DNA of 64,000 bases from the NCBI GenBank assembly GCA_011052815.1, contig DRIG01000095.1, positions 8,943 to 72,942 on the forward strand, written 5' to 3'. The notes under the pieces were generated by a model that saw nothing but the letters and a program-made list of their open reading frames with translations, had not been told where the DNA came from and searched no databases. Made by a program: the position numbers and the translations under genes. This stretch comes from a candidate division WOR-3 bacterium (GTDB taxonomy: Bacteria; Hydrothermota; Tepidihabitantia; SM23-42). Shown here in pieces: positions 5,394 to 63,487 of the stretch; within the stretch, counting starts at the first letter, position 1; every line of letters starts with the position of its first letter.

Positions 5394-5421
5394 TTGACAA
5401 TTATGAAAATTCTAATATAAT
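5394..5421 (+). promoter_or_regulatory. Consensus sigma-70 promoter driving the tRNA Arg-Lys-His cluster.
   Basis: TTGACA 5394-5399, 16-nt spacer, TATAAT 5416-5421. This sits about 175 nt upstream of the first tRNA. Confidence 0.5.
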
Positions 5422-5596
5422 AAATTAAAAATTAAATGGTATGAGGCCTCCACGAATGTTTTTGTCGCCGTTTACAAAAACTGAGTGGAGAATAGGGGGG
5501 AGAATCCCCCATCATTAAGGGGGGTTCAAAGGCTTCCGAAAGGAATTTTTCGGTGTTTAAAAATTCCGTCAGGGAAAAAGGGGGTGCTCCCCCTTT

Positions 5597-5670
5597 GCGC
5601 CTGTAGCTCAGTTGGATAGAGCAACGGATTTCTAATCCGTAGGTCGTGGGTTCGAATCCCTCCAGGCGTG
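5597..5670 (+). tRNA. tRNA-Arg (anticodon TCT)
   Basis: Cloverleaf with GCGCCTG/CAGGCGT acceptor stem, TTCGAATCC T-loop, and anticodon loop TTTCTAA. Confidence 0.85.
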
Positions 5671-5675
5671 TATCT

Positions 5676-5749
5676 GCCCCGCTAGCTCAATCTGGCAGAG
5701 CAACGGATTCTTAATCCGTGGGTTGCAGGTTCAAGTCCTGCGCGGGGTA
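5676..5749 (+). tRNA. tRNA-Lys (anticodon CTT)
   Basis: Acceptor GCCCCGC/GCGGGGT, anticodon loop TTCTTAA, T-loop GGTTCAAGTCC. Confidence 0.85.
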
Positions 5750-5759
5750 TATAGAATGT

Positions 5760-5833
5760 GGTGAGTGTAGCTCAACTGGCAGAGCATTGGACTGTGGTTC
5801 CAATGGTTGGGGGTTCAAGTCCCCTCACTCACC
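5760..5833 (+). tRNA. tRNA-His (anticodon GTG) with the extra 5' G-1.
   Basis: G-1 followed by GTGAGTG/CACTCAC acceptor stem and a C discriminator. Anticodon loop CTGTGGT. Confidence 0.85.
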
Positions 5834-5845
5834 CTTTTTTTTCAA
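5834..5845 (+). terminator. T8 run immediately after tRNA-His; possible end of the tRNA transcript.
   Basis: CCCTTTTTTTTC directly follows the tRNA-His acceptor stem. Confidence 0.3.
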
Positions 5846-8097: not shown

Positions 8098-8553
8098 TTA
8101 CTTTACTTCAACTTCTATCTGCTTCGGTTTCGCCGACTCCGGCTTCGGTAGTGTGATGTTCAACACCCCGTCTTTATAAGTCGCTTTCACTTTATCTGGA
8201 TCGACCTCAGAAGGTAACTCGATGCTTCGACAGAACTTACCGTAGTACCGTTCGATCCTGTGGAATGTTTTGTCCTTGGTCTCTTTTTCCTGTTTCCGCT
8301 CACCGGATACCGAAAGAATATTGTCCTTCACCGTCACCTTTATATCCTCTTTCTTCATACCGGGAAGTTCAGCCTTGACCTCGATATTTCCATTACTCTC
8401 TACGACATCCATCACAGGTGCCCAGAATTCTTCTTTTTCAATCGGCCCTCTACCGAAGAAATTTTCCAGAAGACGATCAAAGTCGTCTCTTAAACTCACT
8501 AAATCTCTGAACGGCTCCCATCTTATTAAATTTCTCTCTTTCATAGATACCAC
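8098..8553 (-). CDS. Hsp20/alpha-crystallin small heat-shock protein, paralogue 1.
   Basis: Alpha-crystallin domain (ELPGMKKEDIKVTVKDNILSVSGERK...). Strong RBS AGGAGG. Shares long identical stretches with the gene at 17156-17602 (~85-90% nucleotide identity by eye over the aligned stretches). Confidence 0.9.
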   Translation of the reverse strand: MVSMKERNLIRWEPFRDLVSLRDDFDRLLENFFGRGPIEKEEFWAPVMDVVESNGNIEVKAELPGMKKEDIKVTVKDNILSVSGERKQEKETKDKTFHRIERYYGKFCRSIELPSEVDPDKVKATYKDGVLNITLPKPESAKPKQIEVEVK

Positions 8554-9196: not shown

Positions 9197-10195
9197 ATGG
9201 AAGGGATGAAGGACGAGATTAAAAAAATCCACGAGGAGATCGAAAAAGAAAGTATTATTGTGCAGACGATAACGAATGAAATCGGCAAGGCGATAGTCGG
9301 GCAGAAATATCTTATAAACAGGCTTCTGGTCGGTCTGCTTGCGGACGGGCATATTCTGATAGAAGGTGTACCAGGACTCGCAAAGACCTATGCCGTACGG
9401 ACCCTGGCCAATGTAATAAAAACCGAATTCCATCGTATCCAGTTCACCCCTGACCTTCTTCCCGCCGATATCATCGGTACAATGGTATATAATCAAAGAA
9501 CCAATGAATTCACGGTAAGTAAAGGCCCCATCTTTGCCAATCTAATACTCGCCGATGAAATAAACCGGACACCACCCAAGGTCCAGAGTGCGCTCCTCGA
9601 AGCAATGCAGGAACGGCAGGTCACGATCGGCGACAAAACCTTTAAACTGGATGATCCTTTTATGGTGTTTGCAACACAAAATCCTATAGAGCAGGAAGGA
9701 ACATATCCACTCCCGGAAGCCCAGATAGATCGTTTTCTCTTGAAGATAAAAATTACATATCCCGATAAAAAAGAAGAGAAAGAAATAGTTGAACGGATAG
9801 CGGTCGCCGGAGAACCGAAAATCAAACCGGTCGTGGATCCAAAGACGATAATCAAAGCCCGGGAGTTGTGCAAAAAAATATATATCGACGATAAAATCAA
9901 GGACTATATCATCGACCTCGTATTCGCCACCCGAGAACCGAAATCTTTCGGCCTGGAGGAACTCTCCGGTTTAATACGCTACGGCGCATCACCACGCGCT
10001 TCAATCTATCTGACCAGTACGGCACGTGCCCTTGCGTTTCTGAAACGCCGTGGTTTTGTAATTCCCGAAGATATAAAAGAACTGGCACCGGATGTCCTGC
10101 GCCATCGAATCATTCTCACTTATGAAGCCGAAGCCGAAGAAGTCACGACCGATGACGTGATCCAGAAAATATTAAGCGGTGTTGAAGTGCCATAA
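9197..10195 (+). CDS. MoxR-family AAA+ ATPase; first gene of the Bat operon.
   Basis: Walker A GVPGLAKT, MoxR-like length and context, strong RBS. Confidence 0.9.
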   Translation: MEGMKDEIKKIHEEIEKESIIVQTITNEIGKAIVGQKYLINRLLVGLLADGHILIEGVPGLAKTYAVRTLANVIKTEFHRIQFTPDLLPADIIGTMVYNQRTNEFTVSKGPIFANLILADEINRTPPKVQSALLEAMQERQVTIGDKTFKLDDPFMVFATQNPIEQEGTYPLPEAQIDRFLLKIKITYPDKKEEKEIVERIAVAGEPKIKPVVDPKTIIKARELCKKIYIDDKIKDYIIDLVFATREPKSFGLEELSGLIRYGASPRASIYLTSTARALAFLKRRGFVIPEDIKELAPDVLRHRIILTYEAEAEEVTTDDVIQKILSGVEVP

Positions 10196-17155: not shown

Positions 17156-17602
17156 TTATTTAATCTCTACATCAATCTGTCTCGGTTTTTCCTCTTCGAG
17201 TTTGGGCAATGTGATGTTCAACACCCCGTCTTTATAAGTGGCTTTGATCTTGTTTGAATCAACGGTCGACGGTAAAGAAATCGTCCTGCTGAATTTGCCG
17301 TATGAGCGTTCGATCCTGTGGAATGTTTTGTCCTTGGTCTCTTTTTCCTGTTTCCGCTCACCGGAAATCGAAAGGACATTATCACGCACCGTCACCTTTA
17401 TATCCTCTTTCTTCATACCGGGAAGTTCGGCTTTGACAATGTAGTTTTCATTATCTTCCTCAATGTCAATCACCGGTGACCAAAAACCTTCTTTCTCCTC
17501 AGGAAAACCGCTGAAGAAACTTTTGAAAAACCGATCCATATCCGCCCTCAAATTCAGCATATCCCGAAAAGGTTCCCATTTATCCAGAAATTTATCCGCC
17601 AT
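17156..17602 (-). CDS. Hsp20/alpha-crystallin small heat-shock protein, paralogue 2.
   Basis: Near-identical core to the 8098-8553 gene (GERKQEKETKDKTFHRIER). RBS GGAGG. Confidence 0.9.
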   Translation of the reverse strand: MADKFLDKWEPFRDMLNLRADMDRFFKSFFSGFPEEKEGFWSPVIDIEEDNENYIVKAELPGMKKEDIKVTVRDNVLSISGERKQEKETKDKTFHRIERSYGKFSRTISLPSTVDSNKIKATYKDGVLNITLPKLEEEKPRQIDVEIK

Positions 17603-25109: not shown

Positions 25110-25793
25110 TTATCTTATAAGAACAACTTTCTCGGTTAACCTGTAATTCTCTCCTGATATCCGCACAAAATAAACACCAGCTGGAACCGATCGACCTTTT
25201 TCATCTGTGCCATCCCATGGTATGATCGTTTTCTCGGAAAAACAGGCATCTGTTAATCTTTTGACTGTCCGGCCGTTACTGCTGAGAATTTCCAGTTTAA
25301 AAGTCGACGTCTGCACTCCATCACCCAAATTATAAAACGGCTGAATCTTGATCTCGGTTCTGTTTTGAAAAGGATTCGGTTGAACCATCAACTTGAAAGT
25401 CTCATTGGAAAAACAACAATCAGTCTCTGCTGCGCCGACTACGACCGTCCCCTCTTCATTTACCGCTGTCCAGCCGCTGTGGAACAAAGTCTGTCCGCCG
25501 ATTACATAAAGTTTGCCGCCGACCACTCCGATCCCGAATGTGCTCACTGCTGCGGGCAGTGAAGTACTGGATATCCAGGTATCAGCGGTCGCATCATAGA
25601 CTTCCAGACTGTCTATCTCTCCATTGGTATCTTCGCCACCGACGACATAGACTTTTTCTCCAACCGTAGCCACGCCCAAGAAGCTCCGCGGCGTGGGCAT
25701 AGCCGCTTTTGTTTGCCAGTTAATGCCGAACAACATTGAAGACGACAAACAGCTCAATAAAAATATCATAACAATTCTTTTATTCATCATCAC
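25110..25793 (-). CDS. Small secreted Kelch-repeat protein with a T9SS C-terminal domain.
   Basis: Two Kelch-like motifs (VYVVGG / LYVIGG). Ends KGRSVPAGVYFVRISGENYRLTEKVVLIR. Confidence 0.55.
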   Translation of the reverse strand: MMMNKRIVMIFLLSCLSSSMLFGINWQTKAAMPTPRSFLGVATVGEKVYVVGGEDTNGEIDSLEVYDATADTWISSTSLPAAVSTFGIGVVGGKLYVIGGQTLFHSGWTAVNEEGTVVVGAAETDCCFSNETFKLMVQPNPFQNRTEIKIQPFYNLGDGVQTSTFKLEILSSNGRTVKRLTDACFSEKTIIPWDGTDEKGRSVPAGVYFVRISGENYRLTEKVVLIR

Positions 25794-26893: not shown

Positions 26894-27823
26894 TCAAAAA
26901 GAACGGTAAACCGACGTTCCGTCGATGAATACCGGAATGTAACGTTTATCCCTGAATTGGTAGTAAAAAGAAACAAAGAGATTGATGAACTTGTTCAAAT
27001 CTTCATCTTTTTCCACAAAATCATCCTGAAGATAAATTAAAGTGGCGGCGATTATTATTTTATTCGTGAAGGCTTCAGCAGAATCCAGTTTCCCTTCTTC
27101 ACTCAATTTGATAAGTTTGTTGATACTCTCAAGGACGATCTGAAACTGGTCTTTATATTTAGTGGAAAGCGGTTTTTTGACCACAGCTTTACTTACGCGC
27201 ATAATTGCATCTGTTATTGCACTCTCGAAAAACTTATACTCTCGGTTAATCACGGCTGCATCCTCTGAAGAAACATCATACGGCTGCCAATCGACATTAA
27301 AAACCCGGTTTGTTCCATATAAACCGTAAACACTTGCCAGAAAGGCGACGTATTGATTCAAACCTTCAGACAACTCAGGTTCCAGAAACCCTTGGAGCCA
27401 TTTTAGAATCAAGGCGATGCAGACACGCATCTTGACCTTATCTATTGAAGTCTGTTTGTCTCTTTTTAACTTCTGAAAGATGACCGTGAGTTCTGTCTTA
27501 TCAAGCACTACATTCTTCCCTAATTTTTTTTCAAAATACCCGGTGAGATTTCTTAATCTGAAGTATCTGGTTTTATGGTCACATTCACTGTAAACATGAT
27601 TGACAAAATCCTGCATAAGTTTTTTATCGATTTTTATCACTTTTTGTGATCGGGGTGAACTGGAAAGAAACTTAAGATAAGCGACAAAATTTTCGATGTC
27701 ACGCTGCGTTATGTGTTGTTCAATAAGAAATCTGGTTTTTTCATATAGGATATCGATTATTCTTTCTGCGGAAATTTCTTTCAGCGTATATTTGAGGATC
27801 CTTGCTAAATTTCTGAGATGCAT
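26894..27823 (-). CDS. Hypothetical, mostly alpha-helical protein.
   Basis: ORF with ATG start. No recognisable motif. Confidence 0.45.
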   Translation of the reverse strand: MHLRNLARILKYTLKEISAERIIDILYEKTRFLIEQHITQRDIENFVAYLKFLSSSPRSQKVIKIDKKLMQDFVNHVYSECDHKTRYFRLRNLTGYFEKKLGKNVVLDKTELTVIFQKLKRDKQTSIDKVKMRVCIALILKWLQGFLEPELSEGLNQYVAFLASVYGLYGTNRVFNVDWQPYDVSSEDAAVINREYKFFESAITDAIMRVSKAVVKKPLSTKYKDQFQIVLESINKLIKLSEEGKLDSAEAFTNKIIIAATLIYLQDDFVEKDEDLNKFINLFVSFYYQFRDKRYIPVFIDGTSVYRSF

Positions 27824-27834
27824 TCTTAAGTAAT

Positions 27835-27862
27835 ATATTACTTAAAAAATCACCGAGGTCAA
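27835..27862 (-). promoter_or_regulatory. Putative promoter for the 26894-27823 gene.
   Basis: On the minus strand: TTGACC (rc of 27857-27862), N16, TAATAT (rc of 27835-27840). Near-leaderless. Confidence 0.4.
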
Positions 27863-27874
27863 GCTTTTTATGAC

Positions 27875-27971
27875 GGGGTCAGATCTCGAAACTTGACAAC
27901 TTATCGATTCTTTTCATACAGGGAGCCGAAACGAAATTCGGGGAATTTGTCAAGTTTCGAGATCTGACCCC
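27875..27971. repeat. Hairpin element, copy 1: 25-bp perfect inverted arms (GGGGTCAGATCTCGAAACTTGACAA / TTGTCAAGTTTCGAGATCTGACCCC) around a 47-nt loop.
   Basis: The arms are identical to those of copy 2 at 33190-33324. The loop edges are alignable with copy 2. Confidence 0.75.
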
Positions 27972-27984
27972 ATGTGCCTTCTAA

Positions 27985-29331
27985 CTACCGGACTTTAACG
28001 ATCTTCTGTTTAACCCCATCATCCGTCTCGATAAAGTAAATACCCGGCTCAATTAAACTCGGATTCACCTCCCGCCCGGAAATATCGAACACCCTGCATC
28101 TCTTTCCTCGCGGTAATCGCAACGGTCCGCTGATGACAGTAGCCCCGTGGAAAAATGTCGGCTTCTTTGAAATCTCTTCTTCGACCCCCACATCTGGCTC
28201 AGTCTTGATGAGCCACATATCACCAAGGCCTGCGCCATAACTATAGGTTATTCCTGCGATGACATACCCGCTGTCCGCAGTCGGTGCCACGGAATAACCA
28301 TAGTCACCACTGCTACCGCCAATGGTCATAGACCAGATCAAATCTCCCTGGGTGTCGGTCTTGATAAGCCACACATCACCACTGCCTGCACCGAAACTCT
28401 CGGTACTACCGCCAATAATGTAACCACCGTCGGTAGCCAGTATTATTGAATAACCATAATCATCACTACCACCACCAAAGATCTTGGACCAGACCTGATT
28501 TCCATTACCATCGGTCTTAAGCAACCAGGCGTTCTTTCCGGAGTAAAGAGAAGTGCGAACCCCGGTGATGATGTACCCGCCGTCTGAAGTCTGTTGAACT
28601 GATCTACCTTCATCAAAGAAACTGAGACCAAAGGTCTTGGTCCAAAATGCATTTCCCTGGCCATCAGTACTGATGAGCCATAAATCCCCATTGCCTGCAC
28701 CATAACTGTGGGTTTCGCCGGTGATGACATACCCACCGCTGGTGGTCTGTATTACTGAATAACCACTCTCACTATTGTCACCGCCGAAAGTTCTATGCCA
28801 AAGCATATTTCCCTGTGCATCGGTCTTGATGAGCCAGAGATCAGAAGAACTACTGTAACTTTCAGTTGTTCCTGTAATGATATACCCGCCGTCCGCAGTC
28901 TGTGCCACAGAATAGCCATAGTCATAGCCGTAGGCGCCAAAGGTCTTGGACCAGATCAAATTCCCCTGTGCATCGGTCTTGATGAGCCAGAGATCACTTT
29001 CATCCACACTATAACTGCGGGTTCCACCGGTGATAACATATCCGCTGTCAGAGGTCTGTATCACTGAATAAGCATAGTCACTGCTGTCACCGCCGAATGT
29101 TCTGGACCAAACCTGATTTCCCTGTGCGTCGGTCTTGAGCAACCAGACGTCAAAAGCACCAGCGCCGTAACTGCTGGTATATCCGGCAATAATATATCCG
29201 CCGTCAGCGGTCAAGGCAACCGAACAGGCGCAGTCATTACTGCTTCCTCCAAAGGGTCTGGTCCAGGCTGTGTCCGGTGCCTGGGCAGATACGAACACCG
29301 CCAGTATCAACAACCCTATTATGTAACGCAT
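27985..29331 (-). CDS. Secreted beta-propeller-type repeat protein (about 8 x 48-aa repeats) with a T9SS C-terminal domain.
   Basis: Signal peptide. Repeats follow the consensus DGGYIITG.T.SYG.G..D.WLIKTD.QGN..WS.TFGG. Ends ...EPGIYFIETDDGVKQKIVKVR. Confidence 0.6.
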   Translation of the reverse strand: MRYIIGLLILAVFVSAQAPDTAWTRPFGGSSNDCACSVALTADGGYIIAGYTSSYGAGAFDVWLLKTDAQGNQVWSRTFGGDSSDYAYSVIQTSDSGYVITGGTRSYSVDESDLWLIKTDAQGNLIWSKTFGAYGYDYGYSVAQTADGGYIITGTTESYSSSSDLWLIKTDAQGNMLWHRTFGGDNSESGYSVIQTTSGGYVITGETHSYGAGNGDLWLISTDGQGNAFWTKTFGLSFFDEGRSVQQTSDGGYIITGVRTSLYSGKNAWLLKTDGNGNQVWSKIFGGGSDDYGYSIILATDGGYIIGGSTESFGAGSGDVWLIKTDTQGDLIWSMTIGGSSGDYGYSVAPTADSGYVIAGITYSYGAGLGDMWLIKTEPDVGVEEEISKKPTFFHGATVISGPLRLPRGKRCRVFDISGREVNPSLIEPGIYFIETDDGVKQKIVKVR

Positions 29332-29377
29332 AAATACCTCCTTTCTTTGTTATCCTGTTCCGGCTTCAAACCCCCTC

Positions 29378-29575
29378 CTATTTCAGTTTTCTTACAATAT
29401 CCTGGAAGCGAAAGCCACAGGAATAACAGTATTCGGCAAACGCAACCATTATCGATGCACCGCAATTCGGGCATGCTGAGATTAACTTTATCCCGCAATA
29501 AGGACAGATATTATCTCCTCTCTTTCCGAGATAATTGCATTTAGGACAGATCTTTCTTAAGTTCTTCTTCATCAT
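29378..29575 (-). CDS. Double zinc-ribbon mini-protein (65 aa).
   Basis: Four CxxC pairs (CPKC...CPYC, CPNC...CYSC). A TATAAT box sits 3 nt upstream of the ATG, which suggests a leaderless transcript. Confidence 0.55.
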   Translation of the reverse strand: MMKKNLRKICPKCNYLGKRGDNICPYCGIKLISACPNCGASIMVAFAEYCYSCGFRFQDIVRKLK

Positions 29576-29671
29576 AAAATTATAATCGTGGGCGTTAAAA
29601 AACCGTTAAAAAGAATGATTTACTTTAACTAAATGGAACTTAAAGACTTTTCCGTGATGTCTTAATACAGT

Positions 29672-32600
29672 TTATTCTTCATTGGTGATTCTTTTATAGA
29701 GATTGAAGGTCTCAGCAGCAGGAACGGTGTTTAATTCTTCTTTCAAACTTTTCTCCAGACGATGGAACTGTCTTATCGCACCGGTTCGGTTTCCCTGGTT
29801 ATATAAAGCCTCCATCATAATCCGACAGGCTTGTTCATCATTCGCATCAAAAGAAAGAAGTCGGCGTGCAAAAGAGATTGCCTTCTGCCACTCAATCCGT
29901 TCCATACACCTCATCGCCAGCCAGAATAAAATTTCTCTCATTCTTTCTTTCAACTCAAACTGTTTGTCAACAAGGGAACGGGTGTAAAATTCCGGTAAAA
30001 AATCTCCACGGTATAATGCAACCGCTTTATGCGCACGGTCTTCTGCAAGGTGAAGCTTCCCGTGCCGCTTGAAATTCCGCCACTCTTTAACAAGCGATTC
30101 AAACTCCCAGAAGTCCACTTTCAGCAGTTCACGGTTGAGAGAAAGAAAAGGGCCCTTTTGAATAACGATATTGCCGCCGATGACTTTGTTAAGCCGGGCG
30201 AGAATAACCCGAAAATTCGCCTGTGATTTCTTTTTTGCCATATCCGACCAGAGATATGAAATCAAAATTTCCCTGGTGATGCCACCGGTTCGGGGCTGGA
30301 CTAATAACAAAGCCAGCAGTTCCTGTGCTTTTCTGGATTGCCATTCATTTCTGGTGATCTCTTCCAAATCACCGGCTTTTTTTACGGATAAACCACCAAA
30401 GGTGGTTATCTCAACAGAATTTATTCGAAATTCCTTTAGACGCTCATGAATGAGGTGGACGGCATTGTTGAATTTTTTTACTCTAACTTGTTTATAGAGT
30501 TCAGAAATTCTCGGTGTTGCGCGCATTTCAAAAAGAAGTTCTAAACCCTGTAAAAATATCGCCTCACCGCGAGTACCGCCGATTGCAAGTCCGAACCTCA
30601 CAAATATATCAGTAAGCAGTAATACTTCACCGTTTGCGGACAGAATCTCTTTTGCTTTTTCAAAAAGTTTCAATGCCTCACTGCGACGTCCTTTTTTCAA
30701 AAGAACCTGTGCCTTCTGCGCCAAGGCCCTTGCGAACCGTGGATTGAAATGGTGTTTCTCCGCAAATGTCAGTGATTTATTGACGAATTTCAACGCGTGA
30801 TCTATTTCATTTTTCTTTAAATAAATCATACTTTTGTATATCAACATATCACAGCGAGAATTTATCTCAAGTTTCTCCCCATCTATCTGCTTCAAGGCTG
30901 TTTCCGCTCTCTCAACATCATTCAATTCTAAATACAGCCGTGCAAAACTCAACCGGGCGGTTAAGTCAAGTCTTTGATTGCCTATCCTCTTTGCCTTACT
31001 CTCTGCTTTTTCAAAAAATTCTTTAGCCCGCTGGTATTCGCCTTTAACCAAAAAACAGTAACCCATATAAAGCAAATCAACACCAACAAGCTGTTCCTTT
31101 TGCAGCAATTTTGCTCTCTTTAAAGATTCATAAAATCTAATCAATGCCGAATCCACTTTCCCCATCCTCATTTCGACAAGTCCCAGTTGAGAGTAAGAAT
31201 CACCGAGATAAAAAAGGAGATGGTAATCCTCCGCAATCTTTTTCGCCTGCAGCATAAAATCAAACGCTTTATTTAAATCTCCCTTTGACATGGAGATCGA
31301 CCCGAGATACAAAAACACCTTATACCGCGCCTCGGGCGCCTTATCCTGAGGTATTTCTACAGCCAACCTTTTGGCTTCATCCTCTGCTTCCTTTAGCAGA
31401 CCTTTTCTCATCAACAACAGACAATGTTCCGCCAGCAAAGTCCAGTAAAGTCTGTCATTTTTCTTCACCAATGTTATCGCTTTATTTATATCTTCCTCTG
31501 CCTTTGACAGATCCTGAAGCGACAGCCTCTTATGAAAGAGCAGTCGGTAATGTATTCCGGCGTCTTTTCTTAAATTATTAACTTCGAGTTCCAGCGCGTT
31601 TTTTTCAATATCATCGACCTGGAGGGTGCTTTTTCCTGAGAACCAGAAAAGTTGATTTGATAAAGATTTGATTTTCAGTTTTATCTTATCGGCCATCTCT
31701 TTTTTATCCGCTATTCTTTGCGCAACATTCAAGTATCGTTGTGCAGATAAATATTGATAGTCATCGAACAGTCTTCTGGCTGTATTGAATAGATAAACGG
31801 CGAGCCTTTCTGTTTCTTCAGCAGGTTTTATGTCTTTTATAAGATGAAAGGCTATTTCCTCGCTGCTTGCTCTATTTTTTTTCAGAATACGGGCAAGCCT
31901 TCTGTGCAGTCTGCGTCGTTGATCAGAATTCATCTTATTATAAAACAGGCTTCGGATCAGAGGATGGGTGAATTGTTTGGCATTACCGGAATCTTCTATC
32001 AAGCCTGATGCGGAGAGGACATTTAGAGACCTCAGGAATTGCTTGTCGGACAGTGAATTCAATAGTTTACGAAGTATTGGAAGTTCAAATATTTCACCGA
32101 TTACTGCCGCACCCCGAAGGAATTTCAATTCTGAATCGGATAATCTATAAATACGATAACCTATTATACTCTCCACTGTCTCAGGAACAGGAAAGCTTTC
32201 ATAATCTGTTTCGACGAACCAACGATCTTTGGTTTCATCATAGAATATTATGTTCTGACGAACGAATGTCTTAACAATCTCTTTTATGAACAAAGGATTA
32301 CCCCGCGTGACACTGAAAAGCCAGTGTGTAAAAGAACCGGCGAAGGTGCTTCCGAACATTTGATTCAGGATGGTCATTATTTCTCCCCCCGAAAGGCCAG
32401 GAAGATCAAGGTAAGAAATCAGATGTTCATTATTCAATTCATCTATGAATATTTTCAGAAGTTGATTATTATTTTGAGTAGTCATTGTTGCGACTATCAA
32501 TATGGACTTACCGACCATCCTTCTTATAATGTATTTCAGTAACCCGGTTGATTCATCGCCCATCCACTGGATATCGTCCAGAAGCAGAATCAGTGGTTTG

Positions 32601-33067
32601 GAATTGGATAAATTATCAAAAAATGTTTGAAAAGAATAAAAGAACAGACGATTATCAATGGGGTGTTCCAGAGATTGTATCTCTAATGGATAATACCTTT
32701 TCAATTCAGGAATGAGATGAATAAAATAGGGGGCGATCTCTGGATTCAAAAACTTTACAAACCACCATCGGCGGTTTTCCACTTTGAGTAGATGGTCTTT
32801 AACCATCTGAATAAACGGTGAAAAAGGTTTTGTTTCATCCTTCAACACCCTGCCGTATAGAATGTGAATATTGGAAGCATCAACTTCATCAATAAATCGT
32901 TCAAGAAAGGAAGTTTTTCCGACACCGACTTCACCGCGGACAAGGATAAATCGACCGTTATAGTTTAACGTCTCTTCCAGGTGACTCTTTAACCATTTCA
33001 GTTCTTTTTTTCTTCCGACGAACGGTTCATCGACACCTGTGGTTCTAAATAAAAATTCTTTCTTCAT
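29672..33067 (-). CDS. STAND-type AAA ATPase - TPR - C-terminal SARP (OmpR-like winged helix + BTAD) regulator, 1131 aa.
   Basis: Walker A GEVGVGKTS at the N-terminus, then a long TPR region. The C-terminal ~250 aa have an OmpR-type DNA-binding pattern followed by a BTAD-like helical domain. Confidence 0.7.
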   Translation of the reverse strand: MKKEFLFRTTGVDEPFVGRKKELKWLKSHLEETLNYNGRFILVRGEVGVGKTSFLERFIDEVDASNIHILYGRVLKDETKPFSPFIQMVKDHLLKVENRRWWFVKFLNPEIAPYFIHLIPELKRYYPLEIQSLEHPIDNRLFFYSFQTFFDNLSNSKPLILLLDDIQWMGDESTGLLKYIIRRMVGKSILIVATMTTQNNNQLLKIFIDELNNEHLISYLDLPGLSGGEIMTILNQMFGSTFAGSFTHWLFSVTRGNPLFIKEIVKTFVRQNIIFYDETKDRWFVETDYESFPVPETVESIIGYRIYRLSDSELKFLRGAAVIGEIFELPILRKLLNSLSDKQFLRSLNVLSASGLIEDSGNAKQFTHPLIRSLFYNKMNSDQRRRLHRRLARILKKNRASSEEIAFHLIKDIKPAEETERLAVYLFNTARRLFDDYQYLSAQRYLNVAQRIADKKEMADKIKLKIKSLSNQLFWFSGKSTLQVDDIEKNALELEVNNLRKDAGIHYRLLFHKRLSLQDLSKAEEDINKAITLVKKNDRLYWTLLAEHCLLLMRKGLLKEAEDEAKRLAVEIPQDKAPEARYKVFLYLGSISMSKGDLNKAFDFMLQAKKIAEDYHLLFYLGDSYSQLGLVEMRMGKVDSALIRFYESLKRAKLLQKEQLVGVDLLYMGYCFLVKGEYQRAKEFFEKAESKAKRIGNQRLDLTARLSFARLYLELNDVERAETALKQIDGEKLEINSRCDMLIYKSMIYLKKNEIDHALKFVNKSLTFAEKHHFNPRFARALAQKAQVLLKKGRRSEALKLFEKAKEILSANGEVLLLTDIFVRFGLAIGGTRGEAIFLQGLELLFEMRATPRISELYKQVRVKKFNNAVHLIHERLKEFRINSVEITTFGGLSVKKAGDLEEITRNEWQSRKAQELLALLLVQPRTGGITREILISYLWSDMAKKKSQANFRVILARLNKVIGGNIVIQKGPFLSLNRELLKVDFWEFESLVKEWRNFKRHGKLHLAEDRAHKAVALYRGDFLPEFYTRSLVDKQFELKERMREILFWLAMRCMERIEWQKAISFARRLLSFDANDEQACRIMMEALYNQGNRTGAIRQFHRLEKSLKEELNTVPAAETFNLYKRITNEE

Positions 33068-33152
33068 AAATCAACGATTGTCAGGGAAATACTTACTTCC
33101 AGAGGAGAAAGCAGCTACCCTTCTTAAATTTTTCTGAAGAACAATCTTATAG

Positions 33153-33180
33153 ATTATAAAGAAGCAGCAGTGATAGTCAA
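33153..33180 (-). promoter_or_regulatory. Sigma-70-like promoter for the STAND-SARP gene.
   Basis: On the minus strand: TTGACT (rc of 33175-33180), N16, TATAAT (rc of 33153-33158). It is 10 bp from hairpin element copy 2. Confidence 0.5.
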
Positions 33181-33189
33181 GGGCTTATA

Positions 33190-33324
33190 GGGGTCAGATC
33201 TCGAAACTTGACAAATTATCACTTCTCATTATAATAACTTCGTGGTCAAACCATTGAAAACAGGATTCCGATGTTTTTCACCACAACAAGATGAGGGAGT
33301 TGTCAAGTTTCGAGATCTGACCCC
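33190..33324. repeat. Hairpin element, copy 2: the same 25-bp perfect inverted arms around an 85-nt loop. Ends 2 nt before tRNA-Arg.
   Basis: Exact match to the copy 1 arms. It contains the tRNA-Arg promoter. Confidence 0.75.
33208..33235 (+). promoter_or_regulatory. Consensus promoter of tRNA-Arg(TCG), embedded in hairpin element copy 2.
   Basis: TTGACA 33208-33213 lies inside the left arm. After a 16-nt spacer, TATAAT 33230-33235 lies in the loop. The tRNA starts about 85 nt downstream. Confidence 0.55.
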
Positions 33325-33326
33325 AT

Positions 33327-33400
33327 GCGCCTGTAGCTCAATCGGATAGAGCGACGGACTTCGAATCCGTAGGCTGGGGGTTCAATTCCCTCCAGGCGCG
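33327..33400 (+). tRNA. tRNA-Arg (anticodon TCG)
   Basis: Acceptor GCGCCTG/CAGGCGC, anticodon loop CTTCGAA, T-loop GGTTCAATTCC. Confidence 0.85.
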
Positions 33401-33417
33401 TTTCTGCAACTCAATTT

Positions 33418-58498: not shown

Positions 58499-58787
58499 CG
58501 GTCGTGCACTCCCTTCGCCAGTCTCTCCAGGAACAGAAAGGCGAAGAGCTCAGACCAGGTTTCCTTATGACCGGCCCATTTCTACTTACCGCTGCTTCTT
58601 TCCAGACCTGACGGGGTTTGTAGCTGGTACCATCATAAGACCCAATCCTCAACACTCTTCAACTCCTCACTGTCGCCCCTGAAAAGTACTGTCTCAAATG
58701 GAGCCTTCAGTCCCGCATAAGCGGATTTCGGGTCATCCGCCAAACGGCGGATTCAAGGCACCGCTAACTCCCCACTTAGCACGACCG
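58499..58787 (-). ncRNA. ffs: Signal recognition particle RNA, long (Bacillus-type) form with an Alu domain.
   Basis: The reverse complement begins GGUCGUGCUAAGUGGGGAGUUAGCGGUGCC (5' Alu motif). It contains the domain IV motif GUCAGGUCUGGAAAGAAGCAGC and ends GUGCACGACC, which pairs with the 5' end. It sits immediately upstream of dnaX, as in many bacteria. No ORF in the region. Confidence 0.75.
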
Positions 58788-62440: not shown

Positions 62441-62814
62441 AAAAAATCATCAAGACCGACAAGGCACCTGCGGCAATCGGTGCCTATTCCCAGGCAATTG
62501 TAGCAGGAGATTTTGTCTTCACCGCCGGTCAAATTGCAATCTCACCGGAAACCAATCAGATGCTTGAAGGAGATGTGGCAGAACAAACAAAACAGGTGCT
62601 TGAAAACATCAAAGCCGTTCTCAATGCAGCGGGAAGTGATCTGTCAAAGGTGGTCAAGGCAACGGTGTATTTAACTGCACCCGAACATTTTGCTCCGATG
62701 AATGAAGTTTACAGTCGATACTTCGCTGAAGAACCGCCCGCCCGGGTCGCCGTTTTTGTAAAGTCATTACCTAAAAACGCCCTTGTGGAAATAGATGCAA
62801 TCGCCTGTTTATAA
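62437..62814 (+). CDS. ridA: RidA/YjgF family reactive-intermediate deaminase.
   Basis: 125 aa. Conserved AIGAYSQA...VFTAGQI...VYL pattern. Confidence 0.85.
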   Translation: MKKIIKTDKAPAAIGAYSQAIVAGDFVFTAGQIAISPETNQMLEGDVAEQTKQVLENIKAVLNAAGSDLSKVVKATVYLTAPEHFAPMNEVYSRYFAEEPPARVAVFVKSLPKNALVEIDAIACL

Positions 62815-63487
62815 AACGATCGAAAAAGAACTGGGAGTAAGATTCAAACGGCGGTCATTGTTGAAAAGAGCACTGACGCACTCCTCTTATATCCAGGATC
62901 AACCGACATCCGGTTTATCCTCAAATGAAGTGCTTGAATTTCTCGGCGATGCGGTTCTTGAATTAATTACAAGAGAATATCTGTACAAAAAATTTCCTGA
63001 CGCGACTGAAGGAAAACTCAGCAAAATGAAGAGGAACTACACGAGCACCGATGCACTTTATCGTTTTGGAATGAGTTTGAATATTGGAAGATTTCTGCTG
63101 ATGGATAAAGGAGAAGAACAGACCGGCGGTAGAAAAAGGGTTTCTAATATCGCCGGCGCAATGGAAGCGATCATCGGTGCCCTGTATCTTGATCAGGGAT
63201 TAAGTGCCGTCAAAAAATTCCTCGACCGTACCCTATTTAGAAAAATAATTGCAGAACAGAAAGATTATAAATCATATCTGAATGAGTGGATAATGAAAAA
63301 GCAGTATACTCTCTCCTATAAGGTCATCAAAGAAACCGGACCTCAACACGATAAAAAATTCCATGTCGCCCTCTATGTGAACAACAAAAAAGTCGCTACT
63401 GGCTGTGGAGAAACGAAGAAGAGGGCTGAACAGAAAGCCGCGGAGAAATTTTTGAATAAATTATCCGTCACTCCTGATGAACACTAA
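62795..63487 (+). CDS. rnc: Ribonuclease III.
   Basis: Signature EFLGDAVLEL plus a C-terminal dsRBD (KKFHVALYVNNKKVATGCGETKKRAEQKAAEK). Confidence 0.9.
   Translation: MQSPVYKTIEKELGVRFKRRSLLKRALTHSSYIQDQPTSGLSSNEVLEFLGDAVLELITREYLYKKFPDATEGKLSKMKRNYTSTDALYRFGMSLNIGRFLLMDKGEEQTGGRKRVSNIAGAMEAIIGALYLDQGLSAVKKFLDRTLFRKIIAEQKDYKSYLNEWIMKKQYTLSYKVIKETGPQHDKKFHVALYVNNKKVATGCGETKKRAEQKAAEKFLNKLSVTPDEH

Follow-up and report, generated by a model that had tools for sequence, protein, structure and literature searches.

What are two long palindromes with identical arms doing on either side of a three-gene block next to a tRNA gene? The question is raised by a 64-kb stretch of DNA (the window, meaning here the whole stretch that was analysed; contig DRIG01000095.1) from a metagenome-assembled genome (MAG) of candidate division WOR-3 (locus tags ENI34_09240 to 09255). 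In this window two hairpin-forming elements, copy 1 and copy 2, bracket the genes for a STAND regulator with a SARP module, a small double zinc-ribbon (DZR) protein and a repeat-rich cargo protein, and copy 2 adjoins tRNA-Arg(TCG). The 5,315-bp block is carried by some strains and absent from others, and in the strains that lack it a single palindrome, which we term E (empty-site palindrome), takes the place of the two copies. We propose that this strain-variable block ends at the two hairpins, which form its left and right joints, and that a circle of the block, bearing a hypothetical palindrome of its own (palindrome I), crossed into a resident E; we give this reading a probability of roughly 60%. 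The hairpins would then be the att-like joints of an islet that lacks an integrase and lies 5' of a tRNA gene, which is the verdict that we draw from comparison of the sequences.

A strain-variable block and its empty site

The 25-mer GGGGTCAGATCTCGAAACTTGACAA, read directly from the sequence, lies on the plus strand at 27875-27899 and 33190-33214, and its reverse complement lies at 27947-27971 and 33300-33324. Copy 1, the attL-like joint (27875-27979, plus strand), consists of a left arm (L1), a 47-nt loop (27900-27946), a right arm (R1) and an 8-nt relic, ATGTGCCT (27972-27979), and copy 2, the attR-like joint (33190-33324, plus strand), of a left arm (L2), an 85-nt loop (33215-33299) and a right arm (R2). 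A repeat search returned the same arms and loop lengths, which an earlier note on this DNA (the original prediction) had given correctly, together with the loop edges that align between the copies and the bracketing of the cargo, zinc-ribbon and STAND-SARP genes. The four arms are 100% identical although the loops have diverged and can be aligned, beyond their edges, only in patches; this pattern implies a sequence-level constraint that probably acts on the arms themselves. Directly after both copies stands CCCCATG[T/C]GCCT, which had been noted as far as GCC. The relic after copy 1 is AT plus the first six nucleotides of the tRNA with one change (GTGCCT versus GCGCCT, a match of 7/8); there is no similarity beyond it, and the repeat lies mostly upstream of the gene.

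Independent Logan assemblies of two SRA runs (L001, L002) reproduce copy 1, and a Logan contig from SRR7802876 (L013; recorded in 2 samples) reproduces copy 2 base for base, so that the structure is real and no artefact of assembly. Apart from the four arms, the window holds no match to the 25-mer at three or fewer mismatches (expected number 0 from 100 shuffles), and arm sub-motifs or half-sites elsewhere in it give weak, chance-level matches only; at six or fewer mismatches there is no third copy in ~75 kb of genome (the 64-kb window plus ~11 kb). Neither copy is flanked by a target-site duplication, the flanks being TGAC/ATGT for copy 1 and ATAG/ATGC for copy 2, and swapping the flanks gives none either.

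The 309-aa gene to the left of copy 1 (p309; 26894-27823, minus strand) adjoins the palindrome on that side in both alleles, and its homologues in two metagenomes of the Joint Genome Institute (JGI) are 98-99% identical. These are on L061, a 34-kb contig (Ga0366835_1001890, sample 3300033150), and L062, a 7-kb contig (Ga0366832_1035397, sample 3300033148), the L-numbers denoting loci or contigs of relatives. Both contigs are 96.8-98.7% identical to the window on both sides of the site (7-21 kb), and in both the gene order is AcrB, tRNA-Arg, a single palindrome and p309, with no tblastn match in either to the STAND, zinc-ribbon or cargo genes. The segment absent from L061 and L062 runs from 27906 to 33220 (5,315 bp; equally 27875-33189, given the 31-nt repeat). 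BLAST aligns L061 1-9949 with window 43127-33190 and L061 9919-12330 with window 27905-25495, two segments that overlap by exactly 31 nt, corresponding to the left arm, one base and TTATC. The comparison of tRNA-Arg loci in relatives that the original prediction had suggested thus returns two loci without the cassette, with one hybrid palindrome instead of two copies. Its idea of an insertion footprint in the tRNA-Arg promoter region is supported by an empty site within the species, a state that deletion may also have produced.

E is a hybrid of the two copies. It begins with the outer flank of copy 1, the p309 promoter (copy 2 has the STAND promoter in this position), continues through the left arm, the base C26 and TTATC, and from there follows copy 2 through loop and right arm to the tRNA, giving a 27-bp perfect stem with an 81-nt loop. 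Base 26, the first past the left arm, is C in copy 1 and in E and A in copy 2; the loop after TTATC is of the 47-nt type in copy 1 and of the 85-nt type in copy 2 and in E; and what goes with the right arm is the ATGTGCCT relic in copy 1 and the tRNA in copy 2 and in E. From TTATC on, the E of L062 is identical to copy 2, from which E differs only at base 26 and in strain-specific changes, and the copy 1 loop beyond TTATC is found in the window allele only. Because E is a hybrid of both copies, the exchange point lies within 31 nt (left arm, one base and TTATC); if base 26 is an informative marker, the exchange probably fell between that base and the first loop difference, that is, within TTATC.

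The diagnostic sequence of the E joint, ...GAAACTTGACAACTTATCACTTCTCATTATAAT..., joins C26 and TTATC to the copy 2 loop, a combination that is found in two samples, each with its own single-nucleotide polymorphisms in the flanks. The filled allele lacks this combination, which therefore cannot have arisen from any k-mer of 21 or more, and E is not a mis-join; the filled allele is itself reproduced by independent Logan assemblies, and SRR7802876 and SRR7787041 are samples with that allele. The pairing of the arms fits such an exchange: L2 is 100% complementary to R1 for 28 nt and L1 to R2 for 27 nt, whereas each copy on its own has a 25-nt stem. Longer complementarity across the copies than within them is what one reciprocal crossover would produce if both parents were perfect palindromes lying in direct orientation, and one of the two predicted parents, E with its 27-bp stem, occurs in nature. 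In a sister species (L104) the p309 promoter is conserved and homology starts exactly at the GTCA beside the arm; since homology upstream of p309 stops precisely where the left arm has its outer end, E has discrete, defined ends.

Several other arrangements were considered and rejected. Inversion of the cassette or of a larger segment, worked through by hand, cannot give the C...A / A...C pattern with the tRNA outside the pair. Had a transposon-like element inserted at the 10-bp target CATGCGCCTG and left L061 as its excision footprint, the resident hairpin would need a loop of the copy 1 type, but the empty sites have that of copy 2. Tn3-like ends (GGGGTC...) are set aside since the element is much too small and lacks a 5-bp duplication, and a Xer/dif-like site at the crossover since there is no 11-6-11 palindrome.

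Promoters and transcripts at the palindromes

Copy 2 ends two nucleotides before tRNA-Arg(TCG), as had been noted and as the Rfam coordinates confirm (33327-33400; 33326-33401 by ARAGORN; plus strand). A point absent from the earlier note is that the inner end of its left arm is the -35 of the tRNA-Arg promoter, TTGACA-16-TATAAT (33208-33235, plus strand), which matches the consensus at 12/12 positions and has its -35 in the arm and its -10 in the loop. This promoter is also contained in E, and the homologous stretch of copy 1 has no usable -10. It closely resembles the promoter of the other tRNA operon in the window (5394-5421). That operon, Arg(TCT)-Lys(CTT)-His(GTG) at 5394-5834, has the consensus promoter TTGACAattatgaaaattctaaTATAAT and a leader of ~170 nt with the G/C-rich hairpins GGGGGGAGAATCCCCC and GGGGGTGCTCCCCC just upstream of its first tRNA.

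A promoter split between arm and loop recalls an inverton, in which the 25-bp repeats would flip the segment bearing the -10 and so switch a strong promoter between tRNA-Arg and the STAND operon; by symmetry, a flipped copy 2 loop would put TTGACA-16-TATAAT facing left. We find this hardly credible, given that one loop orientation is present in four independent assemblies from three strains, that 47-85 bp is very short for recombinase synapsis, that copy 1 has no -10 in either orientation and that there is no invertase gene nearby.

Two promoter-like sites face leftward beside the copies. The STAND site, TTGACT-16-TATAAT (33153-33180, minus strand), is 9 nt away from the left arm of copy 2, on its outer side, and belongs to the variable segment, and the p309 site, TTGACC-16-TAATAT (27835-27862, minus strand), lies 12 nt outside the left arm of copy 1 and is native to p309. 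Leftward promoters next to both copies had been predicted correctly, but at a spacing of 10-12 bp, which these distances correct; the similarity that had been seen between the flanks to the left of the copies does not extend beyond the hairpin to a significant degree, as the local alignment score of 22 falls within the range of shuffled sequences (mean 19, maximum 31).

The positions of the arms, 9 and 12 nt upstream of the two leftward -35 boxes and, in one case, overlapping the -35 of the tRNA promoter, would suit a shared operator or activating site, bound by a regulator such as the STAND-SARP protein and controlling all three promoters. This protein has a SARP winged helix and a BTAD module, and perfect arms beside diverged loops imply a sequence-specific constraint. 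SARPs bind tandem direct repeats that are ~11 nt apart and overlap the -35. The arms, however, have no tandem direct repeats of the SARP type and are located at about -45 to -70, their spacings differ by 3 nt, which shifts the helical face, and there are no further half-sites in the 64 kb. Moreover, the palindrome is kept with identical arms in L061 and L062, which have no STAND-SARP gene, and neither a comparable palindrome nor an arm-like sequence occurs at ~20 orthologous STAND-DZR loci. A palindromic operator for the adjacent SARP, as the original prediction had suggested, is very improbable, and with it a tempting but wrong reading of the locus is removed.

The palindromes might instead act in RNA, as a minus-strand duplex of 25-27 bp that serves as a terminator, an insulator or an RNase III site between tandem operons (the cargo gene running to p309, and the AcrB operon to the STAND gene). 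As single-stranded elements the copies have predicted fold z-scores near -8, the minus-strand hairpins being predicted at -54.7 and -63.9 kcal/mol (z = -7.7 and -9.2); each copy is preceded, on the minus strand, by the stop codon of one gene and followed by the promoter of the next, and the window encodes RNase III (62795-63487). Yet no U-tract follows the stem on either strand, the loops of 47-85 nt contrast with the short loop of an intrinsic terminator and a terminator scan made no call, the arms are identical and show no compensatory changes, the tRNA leader alone has no significant structure (z = 0.06), and Rfam passes the tRNA only, the hairpins reaching no more than 32-42 bits with generic miRNA-precursor models whose thresholds are 95 bits. 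An RNA element would also leave the indel unexplained, and the duplex may be a mere side effect of the palindrome; we regard this reading as improbable. The earlier suggestion of an element resembling a miniature inverted-repeat transposable element (MITE), or of an RNA hairpin, is borne out as to the discrete ends and the identical termini around differing interiors, but not as to a target-site duplication, a third copy within ~75 kb or an Rfam family, and the MITE reading may apply only as a description of the palindrome family.

At the other edge of the palindrome, the 10-nt junction between right arm and tRNA exists in three states among near-identical strains. The window has CATGCGCCTG; L062 has CGTGCGCCTG, with a T-to-C change at ~5703-5712 (plus strand CCCCGT); and L061 has a perfect 10-bp tandem duplication, CATGCGCCTG-CATGCGCCTG, at ~9796-9815. 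A diverged relic of the junction, CATGTGCCTT, is present at copy 1. These variants hint at repeated cutting or slippage at this second edge.

Insertion or deletion of the block

If the block was inserted, the target would have been the resident palindrome E, which fills the gap between the p309 promoter and tRNA-Arg(TCG) and holds the tRNA promoter and leader. The circular block would have brought palindrome I, which would share its 25-nt termini with E and have a stem of 28 bp, a loop of 41 nt and ATGTGCCT as its flank. One reciprocal crossover between I and E in the 5-nt TTATC just inside the left arm would then yield copy 1 as E-left plus I-right and copy 2 as I-left plus E-right, and the tRNA would retain a complete promoter after integration. 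The reverse reaction would regenerate E, and the observed empty state may be the exact reversal of an integration. The joint predicted for the circle is ...GAAACTTGACAAATTATCGATTCTTTTCATAC...AATTTGTCAAG..., containing ...CTTGACAAATTATCGATTCTTTTC.... The AT and six nucleotides of the tRNA 5' end at the far joint, copy 1, may speak for this course of events. We infer insertion rather than deletion, and a circular intermediate; the identical 25-nt arms would serve either as the target of a recombinase encoded elsewhere or as homology for host recombination.

Plain deletion is a serious possibility, if an unlikely one. Here the filled state would be ancestral, two palindromes of a dispersed family resembling MITEs or repetitive extragenic palindromic (REP) doublets (REPINs) would flank the block, and RecA would have lost it between the left arms in the JGI strains. 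The native composition of the block, the conservation of the STAND-DZR pair across related phyla, the 31 nt of near-identity at the joint, the lack of a recombinase nearby, and elements with discrete ends, identical termini and differing interiors all agree with such a loss. On the other hand, the crossover would have to fall in, or be repaired across, the 5 nt past position 26 and not in the 25-nt arm, and the longer L2/R1 and L1/R2 pairing, compared with the arms within each copy, is left unexplained. Nor does a dispersed family fit well with a locus that has no third copy in ~75 kb at six or fewer mismatches, no target-site duplication at either copy and no partial sites elsewhere in the window.

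Several points weigh against insertion as we propose it. The STAND-DZR pair is old and conserved in related phyla, so that the block could be ancestral and the JGI strains could simply have lost it. The direction of the event is argued mainly from a single informative base, position 26, and a RecA crossover in the arm followed by heteroduplex repair across that position could yield the same E. Palindrome I and the circular form are hypothetical and have not been observed, and the evidence comes from one locus with two allele types. The 10-bp tandem duplication in L061 is not accounted for by a crossover at the left arm. In composition the block is not foreign, its GC content being 42.4% against 43.9% (standard deviation 1.1%) for 5.2-kb windows and its tetranucleotide distance ranking 11/118. 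Finally, Pfam and NCBIfam reveal no recombinase of any kind, integrases and transposases included, in the 64-kb window or ~11 kb beyond, and no recombinase or integrase relic in the three cassette genes, in accord with the statement of the original prediction that none is present.

Across WOR-3, Stahlbacteria, Aegiribacteria, Fermentibacteria and TA06 the STAND and zinc-ribbon genes form a conserved pair in ~20 loci, none of which has the palindrome, an arm-like sequence or an adjacent tRNA-Arg(TCG). No member of the palindrome family was found in 1.24 Mb of related loci, and the palindrome is absent at 41 other metagenome loci with p309 homologues and in the 71%-identical sister species. As the loci of relatives lack them, the palindromes are specific to this species. 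Relatives with the same genes and no repeats, which had been named as evidence against an insertion, do exist among distant lineages, but the empty site within the species overrides them. An arm 20-mer has no exact match in the genome contig collection, an arm 18-mer none in the viral contig collection, and the whole element no BLAST match among plasmids and phages; a search of metagenome contigs with the 20-mer also gave no exact match, a result that is unreliable, since the JGI contigs L061 and L062 contain it.

Some features of these relatives are worth recording in their own right. In the conserved pair (loci L003-L034) a DZR gene of 60-84 aa directly follows the STAND gene, and a T9SS beta-propeller gene is often next; in L003/L014, from the closest relative, the zinc-ribbon and cargo genes lie inverted with respect to STAND. 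In a 56%-identical relative the enlarged intergenic region between the STAND and zinc-ribbon genes holds an inverted repeat with 18-nt arms, ATTTGTCATTGCGAGACC ... GGGCTCGCAATGACTAAT, and a 147-nt spacer (L006 13494-13676, L007 3884-4066), which may be an unrelated palindromic insertion.

The block itself consists of three minus-strand genes. The STAND regulator (29672-33067) has an AAA_16 NTPase, TPR and a C-terminal SARP module (winged helix and BTAD, residues ~913-1127) that matches AfsR residues 50-262. Its conserved partner is the 65-aa DZR protein (29378-29575), for which a look-up found nothing on record. The cargo gene (27985-29331), whose stop codon is 13 nt from copy 1, encodes a repeat-rich SBBP-like beta-propeller with the UniRef name T9SS type A sorting protein; no paralogues of it are recognisable in the same genome, the family being too widespread. 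PADLOC finds no defence system among the cassette genes save a marginal BrxD P-loop match. The protein of p309 has no match in Pfam, NCBIfam or PADLOC; its 68 homologues are apparently confined to WOR-3-type MAGs, and JGI labels some of them 'soluble cytochrome b562'.

The window is ordinary core chromosome, with genes for RF1, a PrmA/MTS-type methyltransferase, NAD kinase, a RecN/SMC-type ATPase, DapF, DnaX and RNase III, together with a signal recognition particle (SRP) RNA, an RND efflux operon and a Bat operon. The SRP RNA is of the large (Bacillus-type) form (58502-58784), and two Hsp20 paralogues (8098-8553 and 17156-17602) are 78% identical over 300 nt. A look-up of AcrB, with the start codon chosen by hand, found nothing on record. 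A second strain-level length polymorphism lies inside a repeat protein: the Kelch-repeat T9SS cargo protein has 227 aa in the window (25110-25793) and 397 aa in L061 (12089-13282), a gap of ~550 bp.

The locus offers a natural before/after pair for the gain or loss of a gene block in WOR-3, a candidate phylum without genetics. Its joint is unusual in that a long perfect palindrome stands on the promoter side of a tRNA gene with no integrase in cis, and the exchange is mapped to 31 nt, probably to 5. If the exchange was driven by an enzyme, this would be a type of recombination site that is missed by island-finding tools, which seek 3' tRNA fragments and integrases. If it was a plain homologous deletion, a palindromic repeat of 25-31 nt would suffice to turn a conserved regulatory module (STAND-SARP, zinc ribbon and secreted propeller) into one that a species can do without and that varies among its strains.

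Comparison with known systems

Genomic islands are said, after Williams in 2002, usually to occupy the 3' part of a tRNA gene. The block described here adjoins a tRNA gene, is variable among strains and is bounded by direct repeats, the tRNA is intact, and related strains (L061, L062) have an unoccupied site with one repeat copy, all of which are features of tRNA islands. In contrast to these, the block lies on the 5' (promoter) side of the tRNA and just 6 nt of the tRNA are repeated; the repeat unit is a perfect palindrome of 97-135 bp with the tRNA promoter inside it; as cargo the block carries a conserved regulatory module of the chromosome, with no phage or conjugation genes and no foreign composition; and there is no integrase relic. 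In known islands of tRNA genes the far repeat carries a tRNA fragment and the tRNA itself stays intact (PMC4383910), and in cis-mobilizable elements (CIMEs) attL and attR are kept and the integration genes are absent (PMC5704250). Like a CIME, our locus has attL-like and attR-like joints without integration genes. A literature search for a described equivalent of an islet jointed by palindromes returned nothing relevant.

As in MITEs such as the Neisseria Correia and enterobacterial ERIC elements, the palindromes are intergenic, measure ~100-150 bp and have terminal inverted repeats of ~25 bp; short and long forms differ inside, a -35 lies within the repeat, and the transcripts would form duplexes of the RNase III type. 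The 25-nt terminal repeats are perfect, and the outer end coincides with the end of sister-species homology. Unlike MITEs, the palindromes have no target-site duplication, no partner transposase was found in the window or ~11 kb beyond, and there are two copies in ~75 kb, both at one indel. With REP/REPIN doublets they share two inverted units of ~25 nt, a less conserved spacer, an intergenic position and the lack of a target-site duplication; unlike REPINs, they have no RAYT (Y1 transposase) in the window and no high copy number in ~75 kb, the arms are not good small hairpins, and there is no 5' tetranucleotide of the GTAG type.

Integron cassettes resemble the block in another way, as they too join genes to one imperfectly conserved palindromic site with conserved ends and a variable centre (attC, 57-141 bp). 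In both cases the site stands just 3' of the last open reading frame, the intermediate would be circular and the crossover falls at one edge of the palindrome. The differences from attC are equally clear: there are no RYYYAAC / GTTRRRY core sites, the ends here being GGGGTCAG...CTGACCCC; the stem is perfect over 25-27 bp and has no extrahelical bases, which attC needs; and the crossover lies where the arm meets the loop, not at the outer end. No IntI or attI is in the window, and the cassette has three genes and its own promoter. One may go further and take the palindromes as attachment sites of a hairpin-dependent cassette-exchange system, not described before, with a recombinase that would be encoded elsewhere and cut the arm at its loop-proximal edge. 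Blocks with one palindrome each, fixed in its 25-nt termini and free in its interior, would circularise and integrate into the palindrome at the tRNA promoter. Such a system, which we consider doubtful, would be analogous to integron attC in function and unrelated to it in sequence, structure rules and target.

Returning to the joints of a strain-variable islet, which is the reading that we favour, we note that islets at tRNA genes are already known. What we judge to be new is an integrase-less tRNA islet whose att-like repeat is a perfect palindrome that bears the promoter of the tRNA and lies on its 5' side.

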